Assembly (NCBI RefSeq): GCF_963921235.1
Contig: NC_086097.1
Coordinates: 96,722,001 to 96,786,000, forward strand
Length of the DNA: 64,000 nt
Source: Mobula hypostoma
Lineage: Eukaryota
Direction: 5' to 3'
Both the position numbers and the translations under genes were made by a program. Each line of letters begins with the position of its first letter. The first letter of the stretch is position 1. The notes under the pieces were generated by a model. It worked only from the letters and a program-made list of their open reading frames with translations, did not search any database and was not told where the DNA came from. Positions 49,620 through 64,000 of the stretch are shown here, one piece after another.

Positions 49620-52600
49620 AGAACATAGAACGACAGCTCAGGAACAGGCCCTTCAGCCCATAATGATGAGCCAAGCCAATTAAATTAATAATCGATTGGC
49701 TAATTAAACTAATCTCTTCTGTCTGTACAAAGCCCATTTCTTTCCATTCCCTCAGATTCCTAGTGGGAATGCGTACTAATGCTGCATGGTGGGGTTTAAA
49801 CTAGAGTTGCAGGGGGATGGGAACCAGAGTGCCAGAACAGTTAGAGGAGAATGTTGGCCTTCATTGCTAGAGGGATTGAATTCAAGAGCAGGGAGGTCAT
49901 ACTACAACTGTACAGGGTACTGGTGAGGCCACACCTGGAGTACTGTGTGCAGTTCTGGTCTCCATACTTGAGGAAGGATATACTGGCTTTGGAGGCAGTG
50001 CACAGGAGATTCACAAGGTTGATTCCAGGGATGAAGGGGTTAATCTGTGAGGAGAGATTGAGTCGCCTGGGACTATACTCTCTGGAGTTCAGAAGAATGA
50101 GAGGGGATCTTATAGAAACATTCAAAATTTTGAAAGGGATGGATAAGATAAAAGTAGGAAAGTTGTATCCATTGGTAGGTGAGACTAGAACTAGGGGACA
50201 TTGCCTCAAGATTCGGGGAGAAGATTTAGGACGGAGATGAGGAGAAATTGTTTTTCCCAGAGAGTGGTGAATCTGTGGAATTCACTGCCCAGGAAAGCAG
50301 TTGAGGCGTCTTCATTAAATATATTTAAGATACAATTAGATAGATTTTTACATAGTAAAGAATTTAAGGGTTATGGGGAAAAGGCAGGTAGATGGAGCTG
50401 AGTTTACAGACAGATCAGCCATGATCTTATTGAATGGCGGGGCAGGCTCGAGGGGTGGACGGCCTACTCCTGCTCTTATTTCTTATGTCCTTATGTGATA
50501 CTGGATCTGCCATTAGGGGACGAGACAGGGCAGGTGACAGAAGTTTATGCAGGGGAACACTTTGCATCTAGCGATCACAATGCCATTAGTTTCAAAGTAA
50601 ATATGCAAAATGATAGGTCTGATCCACAGATTGAGATTCTAAATTGGAGAAAGTCCAATTTTGAACTTGATCGTATTAGAAATGATCTGGCAAGTGTGGA
50701 TTGGGACAGTCTGCTTTCTGGCAGAGGTGTAACTTGGTAAGTGGGAGGCCTTCAAAAGTGAAGTTTTGAGAGTACAGAGCTTGTATGTCCCAGAAGAATA
50801 AAAGGTAAAGATAACAAGGGACTCTTGGTTTTCAAGAGAGATTGAGGCCCTGGTTGTGGGGGGGGGAGGGAAGGTAGGAACAAATGAGGTGCTTAAGTAT
50901 TCTCTTGCATTTCTGTACTCCTTAAGTAAGAAATCAGGAAAGCTAAAAGAAGATATGAGGTTACTCTAGCAGACAAGGTGAAGGAGAATCCCAAGGGATT
51001 CTACAGATATGTTAAGAACAAAAAGATTGCAAGGGTCAAAATTGGTCTTCTGGAAGATCAGAATGGTAATGCATCTGTGGAACCAAACCAGATGGGGAAG
51101 ATCTTAAATACATTTTTTGCATCTGTATTTACTAGGAGATGGACACAGAATATAGAAGTGAGGCAAAGTGGCTTCAACTTCATGGACCCTGTACAGATTA
51201 CAGAGGAGGAGGTGTTTGCAATCCTGAGGCAAATCAAGTAGATAAATCCCCGGGGCCTGACAAGGTGTTCCCTTGGACCCTATGGGAGGCAAGTGCAGAA
51301 ATTGCTGGAGCCCTAGCAGAGATATTTAAAACACCCTTAGTGACAGGAGAGGTACCAGAAGATTGGAGTATAGCTAATGTTGTTATGCTGTTTAAAAAAG
51401 GCTTTAAGCATAATCCAGGAAATTATAGACTGGTGAGCCTGACATCAGTTGTGGGAAAGATATTGGAAATAATTCTAAGGGACCGGATATATAACTTTGG
51501 ATAGCCATGGACTGATTAAGGATTGTCAGCATGGTTTTGTGCATAGTAGATCATGTCTAACCAAACTTGGGAAGTTTTTCGAGGAAGTTACCAGGAAAGT
51601 GGATGAAGACAAGGCAGTGGATGTTGTCTACATAGACTTTAACAAGGCATTTGGCAAGGTCCCTCGTGAGAGGTTGATCAAGAAGGTCCAGTCGCTTGGC
51701 ATTCAGGATGAGGTAGTAAACTGGATTAGACATTGTCTTTGTGGGAGAAGCCAGAGAGTGGTAGTAGATAGTTGCTTTTCCGACTGGGTGCCTGTGACTA
51801 ATGGTGTGCCGCAGGGATTGGTGCTGGGTCGTTTATTGTTTGTCATCTATATCAATGACCTGGATGATAATGTGGTTAACTGGATCAGCAAATTTGCAGA
51901 TGACACCAAGATTAGAGGTGTGGTAGATGGTGATGAAGGGTATCATGACTTGCAGAAGGATCTGAAACAGCTGGGAAAAAAATGGGCTGAAAAATGGCAG
52001 ATGGAATTTAATGCAGAGAAGTCTGATGTATTGCAATTGGATAGGACCAACTAGGGTAGGTCTTGCACAGTGAACAGTAGGGCACTGAGGAGTGTGTTAG
52101 GACAAAGGGATCTAGGAATACAGGTCCATAATTCATTGATAGTGGTGTCACAGGTAGATGGGGTCGTAAAGAAAACTTTTGGCACATTGGCCTTCATAAA
52201 TCGATGTATTGAGTACAGGTGATGGGATATTATTTTGAAGTTGTATAAGACATTGGTGAAGCCTAATTTGGAGTATTGTGTGCAGTTTTTGTCACCTACC
52301 TACACAAAAGATGTAAATAGGTTTATAAGAGTACAGAGAAAATTTTTTAAGGATGTTGATGGGTCTGAAGGACCTGAGTTATAGGGAAAGATTTAATAGG
52401 TTAGAACTGTATTCCTTGGAACATAGAAGATTGAGAGGAGATTTATGAGAGGTATACAAAATGATGAAGGGTATAGATAGGGTAAATGCAAGCAGGCTTT
52501 TTCCACTGAGGTTGGGTGGGACTATAACCAGAGGTTATAGGTTAAGGGTGAAAGGTGGAAGGTTTAAGGGAACGTGAGGGGAAACTTCTTCACTCAGAGG

Positions 52601-54585
52601 GTCATGAGAATGTGAAATAAGCTGCCAGCACAGGTGGTAGATGAGAGCTCAATTCCAATATTTAAGAGAAGTTCGGATAGGTACGTGGAATAGTAGGGGT
52701 ATGGAGCGCTATGGTCCTGGTGCAGGTCACTGGGAGTAGGCCATTTCAATAGTTTCAGCATGGATTAGATGGGCCAAATGGCCTGTTTCTGTGCTGTACT
52801 TCTCTGACTCTATGACATATATGTGCCTATCTAAACACCTTTTAAAGGTCTGTAATGTTTCTGCCTTCGTTGCCTGAAGGGGTTGGTATTATGTCCACTT
52901 ATTTTTCACGTTATATGTTTAATGATTCGGATGATCAAATTAACGGCTTTGTGGCCAAGTTTGTGGAAGGTATGAAAATAGATGGAGGGACAGGTAACGT
53001 TGAGGAAGTAGGACATCTGCAGAATGACTAAGACAGATTGGGGGAATGGGCAAGGAAATGTCACATGGAATATAGTGCAGGGAAGTACATGGTCATGCAC
53101 TTTGGTAGAAGGAATAGAGGTGTGGACTATTTTCTAAATGGGGAGAAAATGCAAAAATCTGAGGTGCAAAGGGACTTGGGAATCCTCATACAGAATTCCC
53201 GAAAGGTTAACTTGCAGGTTGAGTTGGTGGTAAGGAAAGCAAATGCAATGTTAACATTCATTTCAAGAGGACTAGAATATAAAAACAAGGATCTAATGCT
53301 GAGGCTTTATAAGGCATTGGTCAGACTGCACTTAGAGTATTGTGAGCAGTTTTGGGCCTCTTATCTAAAAGAAAAAGATGTGTTGGCATTGGAGAGAGTC
53401 CAGAAGACGTTCACACAAATGATGCCAGGTATGAAAGGGTTAACATCTGAGAAGTATTTGATGGCTCTGGCTTATGCTCACTGGAGTTTAGAAAAATGAA
53501 GTGGGGGGAATCTCATTGAAAACTGTTGAATATTGAAAGGTCTGGATAGAGTGGATTTGGGGAGGATGTTTCCTATAGTGGGGTGAGCTTGGGACCAAAG
53601 GGCACCGCCTCAGAATAGAGGATCATCCATTTAGAACAGAGATAAGGAGGAATTTCTTTTGCTCGACAGGAGTGAATCTGTGGAATTCATTGCCACAGGG
53701 GACTGTGGAGGCCAAGTCATTGAGTATATTTAAAGTGGAGGTTGATAGGTTCTTGATTAGTCAGGGCATGCAAGGTTAAGGGGAAAAGGCAGGAGAATGG
53801 GGTTGAGAAAGATAATAAATCGGCCATGATGGATGGGCTGAATGCACTGTCTCAGCAGCGCAGTCCAGGTACCCACCACTCCGTGTATAACAGAAAAAAA
53901 ATTTGTCCCTCTCGTCTCCTTAGAATTTACCCACTCTCATTTTAAATACATGCCCTCTAGTACTAGACATTTCAACCCTGGGGAAAAAGATACCGTCTGT
54001 CTACTCTATGCCTTTCATAATTTTATAAACCTTCATCAGATCTTCACTCAGCCAGTGCCGCTCCAGAGAAAACAACCCAAGTTTGTCCAACCTCTCATTT
54101 ATAGCACATGCCCGCTAATCCAGGTAACATCGTGGTAAACTTCTACATCCTCTCCAGCACCTTGATATCCTTCCTATAATGGGGCAACCAGAACTCCATG
54201 CAATATTCCAGATGCGGCATAGCTAGAGTTTTATAAAGCTGCAACATAACTTCCTGACTTTTGAACCCAATGTCTCAACTCATACCATATGCCTTCTTAA
54301 TCACCCCATCACCCTGTGTAGCCACATTCAGGGAGCTATGAACTGGACCCCAAGATGCCTCTGCTCATCAATACTATTAAGAATCTTGTCCTGTACTGTC
54401 TCTTTTACATTTGACCTACCAAGCTGCAACGCTTCACACTTGGCCAGATTAAACTCCATCTGCCATTTCTCCTCCCTTATCTGTAACTGATCTATCTCCT
54501 ATTGTATTCTTTGTCAGTCTTCGACATAATCCACACCACTGCTAATCTTCGTCTCATCTGCAAATTTACTAACCCACCCATTAAG
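49620..54585. mobile_element. Cluster of nested CR1 LINE fragments (mostly +; a - piece at ~53850-54585)
   Basis: RT ORFs 49851-50401, 51139-52054 (GVPQGLVLG..SKFADDTK) and 53038-53499. Confidence 0.85.
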
Positions 54586-57750: not shown

Positions 57751-59356
57751 CAAACCCCATTTCCAGAAAAGTTGGGATATTTTCCAAAATGCAATAAAAA
57801 CAAAAATCTGTAATATGTTAATTCACGTGAACCTTTATTTAACTGACAAAAGTACAAAGAAAAGATTTTCAATAGTTTTACTGACCAACTTAATTGTATT
57901 TTGTAAACATACACAAATTTAGGATTTGATGGCTGCAAAACACTCAACAAAATTTGGGACAGAGGCATGTTTACCATTGTGTTATATCACCTTTCCTTTT
58001 AATAACACTTCGTAATTCGCTTTGGAACTGAGGATACTAATTGTAGTAGATTTGCAATTGGAAATTTTGTCCATTCATGCTTGATAAAAGACTTCAGCTG
58101 CTCAACAGTCCGTGGTCTCCGTTGTCTGATTCACCTCTTCATGATGTGCCATACATTTCCAATAGGAGATAGATCTGGACTGGCAGCAGGCCAGTCGAGC
58201 ACACGCACTCTGTGTCTACAAAGCCACGCTGTTGTAGCCTGTGCAGAATGTGGTCTGGCATTGACCAGCTGAAATAAGCATGGACGTCCCGGGAAGAGAC
58301 GTCGCCTTGATGGCAACATATGTCTCTCTAAAATCCTAATATACACCTCAGAGTCAATGGTACCTTCACATACATGCAACTCACCCATGCCGTGGGCACT
58401 GATGCAGCCCTATACCATCACAGATGCTGGCTTTTGCACCTTTCGCTGATAACAATCTGGATGGTCATTTTTATCTTTGGCACGGAGAACTCGACGCCCG
58501 TTTTTTCCAAAAACTAGCTGAAATGTGGACTCATCTGACCACAGCACACGGTTCCACAGTCTTTCGGTCCATCTGAGATGAGCTCGGGCCCAGAGAACTC
58601 GCCGGCGATTCTGCATAGAGTTGATGGATGGCTTCCTCCTTGCGTAATACAGTTTCAAGTTGTATTTCTGGATGCAGTGACGGACTGTGTTGAGTGACAA
58701 TGGTTTTCCGAAGTACTCCCGATCCCAGGTGGCTATAATTGTCACAGTAGCATGACGGTTTCTTAGGCAGTGCCGCCTGAGAGCTCGAAGATCACGCGCA
58801 TTCAACAGTGGTTTCTGACCTTGCCCTTTACGCACTGAGATGTCTCTTTATTCTCTGAATCTTTTCACAATATTATGTACTGTAGATGTTGAAAGACCTA
58901 AATTCTCTGCAACCTTGCGTTGAGAATTGTTCCTTTTGAACTGACTAACAATTCTCTCACGAATTTTGGCACAAAGGGATGAGCCACGACCCATCCTTGC
59001 TTGCAAAGACTGAGCCTTTGATGGACGCTACTTTTACACCCAGTCATGATATCTCACCTGCTACCAATTAGCCTGCTTAATGTGGAGTCTTCCAAACCGG
59101 TGTTACTTGAATATTCTGTGCACTTCTCAATCTTATTTTAACTCTGTCCCAACTTTTGTTGAGTGTTTTGCAGCCATCAAATTCTATATTTGTGTGTGTT
59201 TACAAAATACAATTACGTTAGTCAGTAAAACTATTGAAAATCTTTTTTTTCATACTTTTGTCAGTTAAATAAAGGTTCACGTGAATTAACATATCACAGA
59301 TTTTTGCTTTTATTGCATTTTGGAAAGTATCCCAACTTTTCTGGAAATGGGGTTTG
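57751..59356 (-). mobile_element. Full-length Tc1 transposon (1606 bp) with a defective transposase
   Basis: ~210-bp TIRs starting caaaccccatttccagaaaagttgggat; TA on both sides; transposase 58994-57971 with in-frame stops, WSDES and SPDLSPIGN. Confidence 0.92.
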
Positions 59357-60549
59357 TAGATAAGGGAGGGATGGTTTTCAGATGGGAACAGTGGGAGTAG
59401 TGCATTGAGGACCCAGTGTTGTTTTAGGCAGAAGGAACCAGGTGGTGCAGGAGAAAGTTGCCCAGTTTTTTACCCCTCCTCTACCTGACTGCATCTGCCT
59501 ATCAATGCCTCCTTACCTGGTTCCACCTATCATTGCCCCCACCTACTTCACCTCTTTATTCCAGTTATCTATGTCTTTACACTCTCAGTCTCAATGCAAA
59601 GTCTTAACCTGAGTTATCAACCACCCCCTTTCCTACACAGGTGCTGCCTCACTTGCTGAGTTCCTCCAGCTTCCTCAATTTCTTCTCGTTATTTTTATTC
59701 ATAATGTCACAAAAGCAGAGCTTATGGTGTTACATAGGAAGAACAATTGAAATAATGTAAATATTTTATATTACCATTTTTTACAAGGCAGCTATGTAAC
59801 ATAGAACAACTGACTACAACATAATTGGGGTCACTTGCATAGGATTTCTGCTATTAGTAGTTTATTTCTCACTGTTAATAAATAAATAAATAAATGGAGA
59901 AAAATGTTTTTTATATAGCAACTTATTGTCTGAAGGTGTTTCATGGAGTACTACCAAGCAAAATTTGATGGCAAGCCTCTAGGGTATTAAAATGGGTTTG
60001 TGTAAAAGTGGGGTCCAGAGGAAGGAAAGTCGGGAGTGAAGGACTTCAGCAGCTGAAGGCAAGACCACCAGAAGAGGAACGATCAAAATGGAAGCTGTGG
60101 AAGAAATTACAATGGATGATATCTTGATGGATTATTAGGTTGGAAGGGACGACGCTATGGAGTAATTTGAATGCGAAAATTAGAATTTTAAAAAGCATTG
60201 TTTAACCATTGCAAATGTAGGTCATTGAGGGCTGTATGAATGAAATGATGTCTATTAAGACTCAAAGTAGACTTGGATAATGTTTATGGAGAATGGGCGA
60301 TGTGATGTTGGTTAATCAAAATTAAAGTTTACTAAAGCTTGGTGAACAATTTGAAGTGACGATGAGCTGGGCAGAAAAGGGGACAACAAGTGGATTACTA
60401 TAATGACATTTATAATCTTTGAACCAATAACTGAATCAAATATTGAATCAAAAATATGGTACTACCCCACCACCACCCTAGATATGGCCCAGACAGTTCA
60501 TAATCTCTACTATGACCACACATTTTTCATTTGTGTGTTAAATATCCAT

Positions 60550-60773
60550 TGTTGTGTATGTGGCCTGGTTACACAACAATGCTATTAATAAAAACACAGG
60601 AGATGGGAGCTAAGTTTCATGATTCTTTACTGGCAGAATCCAACTTGCCACACACACGTACAGATCAATACGTGCCTAATAGTGCATGCTCAATACGTGC
60701 CTAATAGCGCATGCAGCAACGGGTCCCTACAACATAAAGTAGTCCCTTATAATACTATAAGCCATACGGTACA
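60550..60773 (-). repeat. 3' LTR, with polypurine tract at 60774-60786
   Basis: Direct repeat of 63763-63962 with an extra ~25-bp tandem duplication; adjacent purine run on the minus strand. Confidence 0.9.
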
Positions 60774-61152
60774 CTCCTCCCCTTTTATTTTAATAGTATA
60801 TCAACTTTTTTTTAACTGGGTCACTATGCTAAACAAATATGTCTACCCTTAACATACAAATGCCTACCATTTGTTTTACTTAGTAACTTAATATCAAATC
60901 ATAACAAAGTAACATAATGTCAAATTATAACAAAGTAACATGATAATATCAAATTATAATGAGCTTTTTTGATTTTTGGTCTAAGACCCATTTCTAACTC
61001 AAGTCTGGGGGGGGGGTCTTCTCTGCCTCTCCGGGTAACGTCTGTCAATAAACTTGTTTGTTTTAATACAGATTTCCATATAAAAGTCATGAAAAGTTGA
61101 CCCCTGAGCATAGGGAGTTAAAAATTTGTGCGCCTCCAACTTGCTAAGAGTT

Positions 61153-62074
61153 CTAGGCAGCAGATCGCCTCCGTATAATGAAGACTGCTCTGTGCAGCTG
61201 TCCTAGATATATACACATCTTTGTGCTATCACTTGTCTTCCTTACCCATATCTCATTTGTTCCCCAACTGAGCTAATTACATAGCCAATCTTTGTATTCT
61301 CCTTGAATTCCAAATAGATAGCCTAACCTTTATGATACCATCTCTTATCGTAATATAACTTTCCATCTTCTATTCGTGCTTCATATCTTTGGGCTGGTGA
61401 TTCAGCAGGAGTGCTGGGAAGGTGCTCAGGAGAAGACGGAGATGCTGGTCTTTTCGGAGATTTAAGCTTATTAAGGGTTCGCAGATCTTCCATTATCTGT
61501 TTATCTGTTAACAAGTAATTTAACTGCGCAGGTACAGATTTTCGTCTTTTGTCGGTAATTGGAACAGGGTCATAAGGTCTCCTCCTTAGTTTCCTACCTC
61601 CATAGAACCTCCTGTGAATTCCATTGTTAGCCTCTCGTTCTCAATCACCTTTTTCTTTTCTTCTAACTCAATCTTTTTATCTTCAGATTCCTGCACTGTT
61701 GCTTTCTTCTCTTTAATGTAATTCTTTTCCACTTGTTCTGTCTCCAGTTGCAGAAAGAGCTCTGCATTTCATATTCTTTCCTTGTATTGTTGATCTAGTT
61801 TCTTTATCCTTTTCTGATACTCCTGCAAAGTGCCTTCCTGTAACTGCTGTAGCTGTCTTTTGAGAGATGTCAATTTCTCCTGGTACATCTGTTCTTTTAC
61901 TTCCAGGTAGTCTTCATCATCCTGCTTATTGGCAATATCTGTCTCCCTTGCATCCTCTGTATCTTTATCCGAGTCACGGCCACGGATACTGTGTTCGTCC
62001 TCATCGTCGACGCTGTCTAGCTCCTCTTCGTCGTTGTAATAGTCGACAATGGGTGAGAGGAGAGCTGCGGACAT
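61153..62074 (-). pseudogene. SUDS3: Processed (intronless) SUDS3 retrocopy spanning start to stop, disabled
   Basis: [74 protein letters not shown]; stops at 61769 and 61323, two frameshifts, two short deletions. Confidence 0.95.
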
Positions 62075-63378
62075 CTTCCCTGCCAAGCTGCCCTCCTTTG
62101 TTGACACATCTAGTGCCTTGATGGTCTTCCAATCCAACTGGACTTTCCTGAGCCATTCACGTCCCAGCAATGGTGGTACTCCATTGTTCAGTACATAGAG
62201 GTTCAGCTGCTGTGTTTTGTCTCCGTAGGTCACTGTCACTTTAATTTTGCCTTTGGGACGCACTTTCCATCCTGTGTAAGTCTTTAGCAGTAGTTTAGTT
62301 TGTTTCAGAGGTATGTGAGAAAACAGTCATTTGTAATCATGTACAGAGATCACTGTTAAAGCTGAGCCTGTGTCCAACTCCGTTTTCAGTCTCACGCCCG
62401 CCACTTGTGGAGTTATCCATATTACTCTTTGATCATCTGTCTCTTTCATGCTGTGAAGTTGCAGACAAGACAATTCACTTTCGTCTGAGTCGTTTTCATC
62501 AGAACTGCTTTCTTTCATTTTGTGTACATTGTTGTGTTTTCCTTTCTGGGGTTTCTTGTTTCTCTGTATTTTGTCCTTTTTCTGCTGTTTACTAGCTTTG
62601 CATACTCTGCCAGTGTGGCCCTGTTTGCCACAGTTTCTGCATTCTTTGTCTTTAAACCAACAATCATCAGGGTTATGTGGTATGGTCCCACAATGGTAAC
62701 ATTGTTTACTAGCTTTGCATACTCTGCCAATGTGGCCCTGCTTGTCACAGTTTCTGCGTTCTCTGTCTTTAAACCATGTGACATGTTCCCACAGCAGTAA
62801 CATTTCTTTCCTTCATTTCTGCTCAGTGACATTTTATTCGTAGCATATTCCAGAGATTTTTGTTGTATCTGTGAGGCACCCCATGCTGCTGTTTCCGTTG
62901 ATATTACAATGTTCAGCACCTTCTCGAATGTAAGGTCTTTTTCACCCAGGAGCTTCTTCTGTGTGGTTTCACAGTGCGTGCCACACACTAACCTGTCCCT
63001 CAATGCATCCGATAGACCAGCTCCAAATTGACAATGTTCGGATAATTTGTGCAATTCAGCACAATATTAAGAAATACTTTCATTTTTGCTCTGATTCCGA
63101 TTGTGAAATATAAATTTTACAGCAATGATCAGTGGTTTGGGGTTTAAATGCTGTTGGAGAGTGTCTACTATTTGCTTGAACGTTTTGTCAGCTGGCTTTT
63201 CAGGGGTTAACAAGCTCCGTAGCAGGCCGTATGTTTTTGCTCCCATAACACTGAGTAAGTCACTGGCTTTCTTTTCATCATTACCATCATTAGCATCACA
63301 ATGTAACTCCACTCTCTCACTGTAAGTTGCCCAGTCTTCAATGCCACTATCAAATGCTGTAATGGTTCTAATCATCAC
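62075..63378 (-). pseudogene. Gypsy gag and aspartic protease remnant
   Basis: EDWATYSERV..LRSLLTPEKP; LRDRLVCG; CCHC knuckles; ELDTGSALTVIS; LLGREWL. Confidence 0.9.
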
Positions 63379-63762
63379 AATCTTTGTTATGTTAATTTAG
63401 CCCCGTTTTCCCCTTGTTTTCTTTTTGACTCGCCTATCCTTTTTGCTAGAACCATGAGTGCACTCCATCTAGATCTGTGTGTCGCTTCTTTTTATCTTGC
63501 TTTTGGGGCAGGCAGACCCTCAGCCCTGGGGGTCAGCGCCGGCTGTGGTCTTGCCTGGACGTGCTGCAGCTCTATCTGTGTCTCTTGGTCTCCCGACATT
63601 CCCGACCCTGGCTGTGCTCCCACTTCCTTTTAGATTCGCAGCCTCGCTCTGCCTCCTTCTCTCGCTCCTTGGCTTATTCCTTGCTCTCTTTCTGCGAGTG
63701 CTGTTATCAACTAATAGACGGCGTTCCGATAAGATGTAGGTTCATTAACCTCGTCACCAATG

Positions 63763-63962
63763 TGTTGTGTATGTGGCCAGGTTACACAGTAATGCTGTTA
63801 GTGAAAACACCGGAGGTGGGAGCTAAGTTTCATGGTTCTTTACTGGCTGAATCCGAACTCAGCACACACATGTACAGATCAATACACGCCTAATAGTGCA
63901 TGCAACGACGTGTCCCTACAACATAAAGTAGTCCCTTATTACACTGTAGGCCATACGGTACA
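63763..63962 (-). repeat. 5' LTR, with primer binding site at 63749-63759
   Basis: 200 bp TG..CA; PBS TGGTGACGAGG is one mismatch from the complement of the tRNA-Ser(GCT) 3' end (recalled). Confidence 0.9.
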
Positions 63963-64000
63963 TCCATAATTGCCATTTTTAAAGGTGTCATATTTGCTTA

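Follow-up and report, generated by a model that had tools for sequence, protein, structure and literature searches.

We analyzed a window of 64,000 nt from Mobula hypostoma (assembly GCF_963921235.1, contig NC_086097.1, positions 96,722,001 to 96,786,000 of the forward strand), and the positions given below are those of this whole stretch. Direct reading of the sequence identified a 3.4 kb long terminal repeat (LTR) element on the minus strand at 60550-63962, which carries gag and protease (PR) followed by an intronless copy of the host gene SUDS3, and which is devoid of reverse transcriptase (RT), RNase H (RH), and integrase (IN). An initial annotation of this stretch had read the layout as target-site duplication (TSD), LTR, primer-binding site (PBS), gag, protease, SUDS3, end of pol, polypurine tract (PPT), LTR, and TSD, and all of these parts were found on the minus strand at, or within a few bases of, the positions that it gave. 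The features are listed here in the order of the element, with reference to a full relative from the same genome that is described below.

63963-63967, no strand: target-site duplication on the 5' side of the element, TCCAT, read directly.
63763-63962, minus strand: 5' LTR of 200 nt, TG..CA, with the internal direct repeat absent (cf. 63879-63903).
63749-63759, minus strand: PBS-like motif TGGTGACGAGG, starting with TGG, 3 nt past the 5' LTR; TGGCGACGAGG in other copies.
62481-63396, minus strand: gag encoding CCHC zinc knuckles; matches Pfam zf-CCHC and, below threshold, DUF7083.
62094-62480, minus strand: protease region (LDTGSAL ... LLGREWL ... LDWKTIKAL) with the DTGS motif, collinear with the full element up to the junction.
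62087-62093, minus strand: 7-nt microhomology GGGCAGC at the putative 5' switch point, common to element pol and the host SUDS3 5' untranslated region (UTR).
62075-62086, minus strand: SUDS3 5'UTR of 12 nt, TTGGCAGGGAAG in the window copy and CTCGGCGGGGAAG in many copies, which keeps SUDS3 in the protease frame.
61153-62074, minus strand: SUDS3 coding sequence (CDS), intronless and frameshifted, with ATG at 62074-62072 and TAG at 61155-61153; Pfam Sds3.
61040-61152, minus strand: captured SUDS3 3'UTR of 113 nt; the motif ATTAAA precedes the junction by about 20 nt, and the host transcript extends past 61040.
60995-61039, minus strand: pol 3'-end remnant, the last 14 codons, which read YPERQRRPPQRLEL in the full element, and the stop; from 61039 on, the window copy and the full element are again homologous.
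60787-60994, minus strand: non-coding tail from the pol stop to the PPT, sharing about 79% identity with the full element; tandem repeats of 26 nt occupy 60882-60962.
60774-60786, minus strand: polypurine tract AAAAGGGGAGGAG, adjoining the 3' LTR, read directly.
60550-60773, minus strand: 3' LTR of 224 nt, TG..CA, with a 25-nt internal direct repeat in the 60667-60714 region.
60545-60549, no strand: target-site duplication on the 3' side of the element, TCCAT, read directly; the identical 5 nt are at 63963-63967.

The genome searched was the window's own assembly (3.48 Gb, 200 contigs). A full relative of the element was found in it at C18:166739533-166744678 (5146 bp, TSD ATGAC), with LTRs, leader, gag, and PR as in the window copy and with the order LTR-gag-PR-RT-RH-IN-LTR. 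The two elements are collinear up to 62087 and again from 61039, which places the 5' breakpoint at 62087/62086 and the 3' breakpoint at 61040/61039; the earlier estimates of ~62075-62100 and ~61045 bracket these positions, and the probable 3'UTR, first put at ~105 nt, measured 113 nt. Pfam matches to RVT_1 (E=1e-24), RT_RNaseH, RT_RNaseH_2, Integrase_H2C2, and rve lie between the breakpoints in the full element. As the two are collinear except between the breakpoints, the chimera is the full element with RT-RH-IN swapped for window 61040-62086. Thus, the spliced host mRNA replaced internal element sequence and did not interrupt it, and the proposal of the initial annotation that a SUDS3 mRNA was captured in place of RT, RNase H, and integrase was borne out, with all three carried exactly between the breakpoints in the full element. 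The pol C-terminus of the full element (L020:637-1269), which ends in YPERQRRPPQRLEL and the stop codon, was kept in the chimera, as were all of the cis signals that had been described as retained, namely the LTRs, the PBS-like motif, and the PPT. Judged by domain order and Pfam types alone, the parent would fit a Ty3/Gypsy-type element. When the genome was probed with 1.4 kb of RT sequence, there were 2207 first-look candidates. Of these, 41 were scored: one is a piece of 115 nt, and the other 40, at 89-93% identity, cover 1254-1401 nt of the 1401-nt query. The autonomous parent family is abundant in this genome.

No poly(A) run and no TSD was observed at either edge of the SUDS3 segment (61040/61039 and 62086/62087), either in the reading of the window or after alignment to the full element, and the earlier view that the SUDS3 copy was not made by a long interspersed nuclear element (LINE) therefore held after alignment to the parent. 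The alternative would be a LINE-made processed SUDS3 pseudogene that was inserted in an LTR element, followed by deletions that removed RT-IN and then by amplification. LINE RT fragments are common near the element, and the passages of a preprint (10.64898/2026.06.26.734816) on cartilaginous-fish SUDS3 retrocopies treat these in general as non-LTR products. We nevertheless considered such an origin very improbable, since no poly(A), LINE 3' end, or TSD stands at either cargo edge, the cargo replaces RT-RH-IN exactly, a 7-nt microhomology is present at the 5' junction, the cargo is sense-oriented and in frame, and two different 3' junctions occur with one common 5' junction.

The chimera is not confined to the window. 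A 30-nt pattern over the PR/SUDS3 junction, in which two CpG positions were degenerate and as many as 3 mismatches were tolerated, occurred at 326 genomic sites compared with 0 for the reversed control, which excludes chance, and the short 3' junction of the window copy occurred at 170 sites compared with 0 for its control. A 201-nt PR/SUDS3 junction probe gave 607 first-look candidates, a figure that is not a copy number; all 40 scored matches cover at least 195 of 201 nt at 92-100% identity, and 35 of them reach position 201. Similarly, a 301-nt 3'-junction probe gave 610 first-look candidates, again not a copy number, and all 40 scored matches were near full length. For the 5' LTR there were 1467 first-look candidates, of which at least 40 were scored as matches at 86-89%. 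The 5' junction was identical base for base, point changes aside, in all 29 sampled non-self loci. Perfect 5-bp TSDs were present in six of 12 examined elements and were all different (ACTTG, TGTAC, TAGAC, GTTCA, GATGC, and ATGAC); in the remaining six, three TSDs match at 4/5 and one at 3/5, and two elements have an unplaceable 5' end, so that 5-bp TSDs, perfect or 4/5, were found in nine of 12 other elements. These results, with the same internal junctions and switch points at different insertion sites, indicated that the chimera transposed and was amplified as a family, now at several hundred loci, as the initial annotation had thought possible; it had argued that multiple loci with identical junctions and different TSDs would reveal this, and such loci were found. 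That the window locus holds a one-off chimera or an assembly artefact is extremely unlikely: nothing except the end of the window, 38 nt beyond the element, speaks for it, and it is contradicted by the 326 junction sites on many contigs, by the differing TSDs, and by junction-bridging contigs in an independent public run.

The host SUDS3 gene was located on the minus strand of contig C78, a contig other than that of the window, and contains introns. It was traced by degenerate motif patterns. DNA and protein queries for the host gene scored only element copies, and the best non-self DNA match, on C5, was rejected as the host gene because it is a chimera fragment fused to a cold-shock cDNA. A degenerate pattern for the residues KENLIAEL matched four genomic places, one of which is the SUDS3 exon on C78, with CAG at its acceptor border and GT at its donor border; on the same strand, 19.5 kb separate this exon from the host stop codon downstream. 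Element copies continue across both exon borders, which indicates that the cargo was spliced. With the intron-containing SUDS3 on C78 and the full element on C18, both the parental gene and the intact parent element that the initial annotation had suggested looking for are in hand.

The authentic SDS3 proteins of rays, sharks, and chimaeras have the eight residues KENLIAEL, and the element copies are without them. The missing 24 nt sit within the C78 exon between two GAGTT repeats, and a loss of this kind fits the trace that a polymerase slip would be expected to leave. Among 49 sampled exon-spanning copies, the host 24 nt were kept in none; 44 have the exact 24-nt gap, and the remaining five have gaps of 18-26 nt split by further indels. 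These 49 copies showed 92.5-99.2% identity to the host exon (median 97.0%), and a sister copy showed 87-89% identity to ray SDS3 proteins.

Two forms of the 3' junction were observed. About a third of the copies have a further 225 nt past the 3'UTR end of the window copy (long form), and the point at which they return to element sequence lies 15 nt deeper in the pol tail. A 27-mer of this extra piece occurs at 123 sites, comprising about 122 element sites and the host locus on C78, where it lies exactly 256 nt past the stop codon, with equal spacing in a long-type element copy; this matching spacing indicates that the extra 225 nt are host 3'UTR. A 236-nt probe of the extra 3'UTR gave 143 candidates, and all 40 scored were at 93-100%. 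In addition, contigs of three runs (X17, X15, and X7) continue past 61040 into a longer host 3'UTR, as in the long subfamily. The long-type copies on C36 and C40 share an identical 5' junction with the short type. Because both forms share the 5' junction and the 24-nt loss, we concluded that they descend from one capture; the 3' end was probably remade later by a second template switch. If each form went back to a separate capture of SUDS3 mRNA within one element family, this would account for 3' junctions that differ in both the host and the element breakpoint, and the short form ends about 20 nt past ATTAAA, as a short 3'UTR isoform would. We regarded this as highly unlikely, since independent events would not repeat both the identical 5' junction (long-type C36 and C40 are among the matches) and the common 24-nt loss.

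Further fusions were observed within the family. In a sub-lineage of the short form, about 950 nt are inserted within the SUDS3 open reading frame (ORF) at about window 61441, bounded by an 8-10 nt repeat, and on the opposite strand the insert encodes an intronless C3HC4 RING finger (Pfam, E=1e-11) with adjoining sequence that we take to be RNF213-like. Six clear cases were found among the 29 loci of the 3'-junction probe (L073:341-1330, corresponding to C1:~4112530-4113520, and L068, L078, L082, L084, and L085), and the insert was also seen as protein matches ending at residue 224. It looks like a second host-gene fragment that was then amplified with the element. At L103 (C5:1859900-1861300), the end of PR and the first ~390 nt of SUDS3 are fused to a cold-shock domain cDNA (Pfam CSD, E=2.5e-23), which is Y-box-like. 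The RING and cold-shock fusions indicate that the RT of the element evidently switches templates often. At L038:1602-3062 (C55), the SUDS3 frame continues by chance into the RT (YIDD) of a nested unrelated retroelement, giving an open frame of 487 residues.

To return to the 5' junction of the window copy, a host-type contig from a public run, the RNA label of which is guessed, has both the host-specific 24 nt and the 16 nt lost from the window copy, and thus represents a host transcript. An overlapping neighbour contig of the same run matches the window to 62093 and then continues into 37 nt of unrelated GC-rich sequence. Since the host contig reaches 62093 and the full element matches down to 62087, the heptamer GGGCAGC occurs both in the host 5'UTR and in pol immediately past PR.

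We proposed the following origin of the family. An autonomous Ty3/Gypsy-type element of about 5.1 kb may have co-packaged a spliced host SUDS3 mRNA, and during minus-strand synthesis RT would have left the element RNA close to the pol end and moved onto the 3'UTR of SUDS3. It would then have copied the whole SUDS3 mRNA, slipping past 24 nt between the two GAGTT repeats, and would have returned to the element RNA at GGGCAGC, where the SUDS3 5'UTR matches the element immediately past the protease. The product would have retained the LTRs, PBS, leader, gag, PR, and PPT and lost RT, RH, and IN. Presumably, this chimera was transcribed and packaged like its parent, and was copied and integrated in trans by the enzymes of the abundant parent family; we infer mobilisation in trans because RT and IN are missing and the parent is abundant. 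Later switches could have produced the second 3' junction and the sub-lineage with the antisense RING-gene fragment.

We addressed selection on the cargo by comparing singleton variants, which reflect post-insertion decay, with variants shared by at least three copies, which reflect propagating lineages. For SUDS3 in 45 copies, the ratio of non-synonymous to synonymous variants was 560:176 in singletons and 229:81 in shared variants (p=0.48). For SUDS3 in 26 junction-probe copies, the corresponding ratios were 445:138 and 81:42 (odds ratio 1.67, p=0.02), and for gag and PR in 29 chimeric copies they were 405:140 and 82:61 (p=1e-4). With the threshold at five or more copies, the 45-copy set gave an odds ratio of 1.64 (p=0.04). 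By codon position, the singletons of this set were distributed 228/241/267 and the shared variants 120/87/103, with no third-position excess. When CpG sites were removed, the p values for SUDS3 ranged from 0.07 to 0.42 and none was significant, and the shared variants of SUDS3 and of gag and PR were not significantly different (p=0.17). Pairwise Nei-Gojobori dN/dS (medians 0.64 for SUDS3, 0.54 for gagN, and 0.50 for PRc) was dropped as evidence of selection, as the transition and CpG excess biases it below 1 and its signal was without clear backing from the singleton-versus-shared comparison.

The condition of the copies was also assessed. The longest run of SUDS3 residues was 242 among 29 sampled copies with an ATG; the 45 mapped copies have 0-10 stops each, and of 122 genomic matches scored, four span the full length and have no stop. 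A few per cent of open copies is not surprising for the youngest copies, and every sampled copy is decayed to some degree. Thus, the evidence for selection on the cargo is weak and sample-dependent, and we concluded that gag and PR were under constraint, which for the SUDS3 cargo was weak at most, and that the cargo was most likely a passenger. The importance to the element of a chromatin-silencing cargo, which the initial annotation had implied, was not established, given that the sampled copies were all decayed and that the selection test was weak and depended on the sample.

Taken together, the results make it very likely that the family arose from a single capture of SUDS3 mRNA by template switching and was amplified in trans, with the cargo most likely a passenger. 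Several points weigh against this account. The short type keeps 15 pol nt that the long type is without, so that neither form is a simple deletion of the other, and either could have come first. The microhomology at the 5' junction rests on one contig from a run only guessed to be RNA, and the short 3' junction has weak similarity, GACAGAC versus GTCAGGT (4/7). Co-packaging and trans-mobilisation were deduced and not observed, and the first-look candidate figures (607, 610, and 1703) are not equivalent to copy numbers. Finally, the constraint on gag and PR could reflect a requirement in cis or repeated recombination with parents, rather than simple passive hitch-hiking.

A different role for the cargo was also considered, in which the Sin3-HDAC repressor was disturbed or turned to use by the cargo product, either as part of a Gag-PR-SUDS3 fusion or as a free SUDS3-like protein, which would have aided the spread of this chimera over other defective derivatives. 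SUDS3 is complete from ATG to stop and lies in the PR frame, the shared variants were less often non-synonymous in the 26-copy set (odds ratio 1.67) and in the 45-copy set at the threshold of five (odds ratio 1.64), and four of 122 scored matches are full length and stop-free; moreover, the several hundred copies compare with 1-5 for the comparable chimeras covered in passages of PMC5131818. We considered this role unlikely. The 45-copy test was flat (p=0.48), with differences even over the codon positions, CpG removal left nothing significant, and the shared variants of SUDS3 did not differ significantly from those of gag and PR (p=0.17). The deletion of eight residues in the founder is non-synonymous, and so are S>G and P>T, both of them shared changes; in addition, the sub-lineage with about 950 nt inside the SUDS3 ORF was amplified anyway, and no ORF exceeded 242 SUDS3 residues in the 29 sampled copies with an ATG. 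The 8-residue deletion presumably lies in the coiled-coil region of SDS3. A more specific form of this idea, that in-frame Gag-PR-SUDS3 acted in the germ line as a decoy or tether for Sin3-HDAC, blunting silencing and leading to the success at several hundred copies, seems slightly less probable still; if true, it would represent a retrotransposon-borne anti-silencing factor taken from the silencing machinery of the host. We therefore retained the passenger interpretation.

The window copy itself represents an insertion that is old and dead; it carries frameshifts as well as a deletion of 16 nt and a duplication of 117 nt, and its LTRs have diverged by 12%. Its LTR pair is 88% identical outside the 25-nt internal repeat (Kimura two-parameter distance, K2P, 0.128). 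This repeat is present in the 3' LTR only (60667-60714, compared with 63879-63903 of the 5' LTR). LTRs of 223-224 nt were found in other copies too, and thus the 5' LTR of the window copy probably lost one repeat after insertion; the family holds two LTR length types side by side, of about 198 nt and about 224 nt. The SUDS3 of the window copy has a private 16-nt deletion at about 61594, and the ORF 61769-62326 crosses the 12 nt of the SUDS3 5'UTR from protease into SUDS3. A zinc-knuckle unit of gag is duplicated in tandem over 117 nt at 62586-62776, with the two copies 93% identical, and aligned as a single unit in the other element copies compared. Next to the 3' LTR, AAAGGGGAGGAG was found in nine of 12 other sampled elements and the one-base variant AAAGGGGAGAAG in one more. 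A leader sits between the PBS-like motif, which we take to correspond to tRNA Ser, and gag; a tRNA scan of the window found no tRNA gene. The locus is rich in repeats, and by eye LINE-type RT fragments were recognized at 51479-53499 on the plus strand and a Tc1/mariner-like transposase remnant at 58131-58847 on the minus strand.

Across 11 chimeric copies, the K2P of LTR pairs ranged from 0.057 to 0.145, compared with 0.087 in the full element. Given a vertebrate-like rate of about 1e-9 per site per year, which is uncertain for rays, the copies may be tens of millions of years old. Among annotated proteins, 'SDS3-like' models come closest; these belong to Mobula hypostoma and Mobula birostris and have the same 8-residue deletion, and element copies are annotated as 'sin3 histone deacetylase corepressor complex component SDS3-like' in these two species. 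Some SDS3-like models splice element leader or PR sequence onto the cargo. Junction-derived residues were present in just two such models, one with the peptide ALDVSAKEGSLVGK and one with a frameshifted reading of the junction. In addition, a contig that spans the junction (61993-62189) comes from a DNA run labelled with a different organism, which indicates that the family is not private to one genome. None of the runs on record as RNA contained the stretch. In runs only guessed to be RNA, contigs cover gag and PR, and one contig, of 196 nt, extends 24-25 nt past the junction, less than the criterion of 31 nt; no junction-bridging contig that reached this criterion was found in these runs.

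The chimera can be compared with known systems. In retroviral oncogene transduction, an intronless gene derived from a host mRNA replaces viral pol or env by RT recombination, and the defective product depends on a helper. The SUDS3 chimera differs in that no read-through or fusion-transcript step is needed or shown and in that there was no clear selection of the cargo. Unlike the acute transforming retroviruses, it is endogenous, being a Gypsy-type retrotransposon, and its spread took place in the germ line.

A closer counterpart is LTR-mediated retroposition, and in the passages of Tan et al. (2016; PMC5131818) on this process such chimeras behave as non-autonomous LTR elements. The template-switch capture put forward by the initial annotation fits the junctions and agrees with this published process, and the mechanism is not new. 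In both cases an internal spliced retrocopy replaces part of the ORF, both LTRs are kept, and L1 hallmarks are absent; multi-gene chimeras occur, and the chimera can undergo further rounds of retroposition as a non-autonomous element. The microsimilarity at the switch points in the cases of Tan et al., with a median of 6 bp and in 25 of 29 junctions, may have its counterpart in the 7 nt at the 5' junction here. The cases in those passages are mostly partial mRNAs in one or a few copies, whereas the SUDS3 chimera holds the whole CDS, from the 5'UTR to the 3'UTR near the polyadenylation signal, in the PR frame. Moreover, unlike those cases, it occurs in a cartilaginous fish, with at least 326 recognisable junction sites and with subfamilies. 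Bs1 of maize, as described in PMC5131818, is likewise an LTR element with an internal region of captured host exons; it differs in being a plant element with 1-5 copies, fragments of three genes, and a reported functional hybrid protein. In the literature on SUDS3 and retrotransposons and on Mobula genomes, no description of a SUDS3-bearing LTR family was found. Thus, the mechanism is already known, and the SUDS3 family itself is new and exceptionally amplified.

Like LINE processed pseudogenes, the family consists of many scattered intronless SUDS3 copies. In contrast to them, the SUDS3 cargo has no poly(A) or TSD of its own and lies inside an LTR element with identical junctions; these identical junctions indicate that the SUDS3 copy number reflects one capture and LTR amplification, not repeated LINE retroposition. 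In its passages on retrocopy parents, the preprint (10.64898/2026.06.26.734816) placed SUDS3 among the five top parents of cartilaginous fishes, together with MIPOL1, SDF2L1, SLU7, and ZNF276, and discussed the retrocopies as non-LTR products. The chimera family offers a different and probable cause for the rank of SUDS3, and MIPOL1, SDF2L1, SLU7, and ZNF276 might likewise be cargo of amplified elements and not products of repeated LINE events.

These results have consequences for the counting and annotation of retrocopies. In this genome, nothing can be learned from the number of SUDS3 'retrocopies' about germline expression or about the activity of LINEs. Surveys in which each such copy is taken for an independent event would arrive at inflated retrocopy numbers, and element copies are now listed as SDS3-like genes in two Mobula species. 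The family is also a natural record of template switching by RT, preserved in two 3' junctions, a 24-nt skip, and fusions with a RING gene and a cold-shock gene. More broadly, LTR-mediated retroposition, which in animals mostly yields single or few copies, can found a vertebrate family of hundreds of members carrying a complete host CDS.

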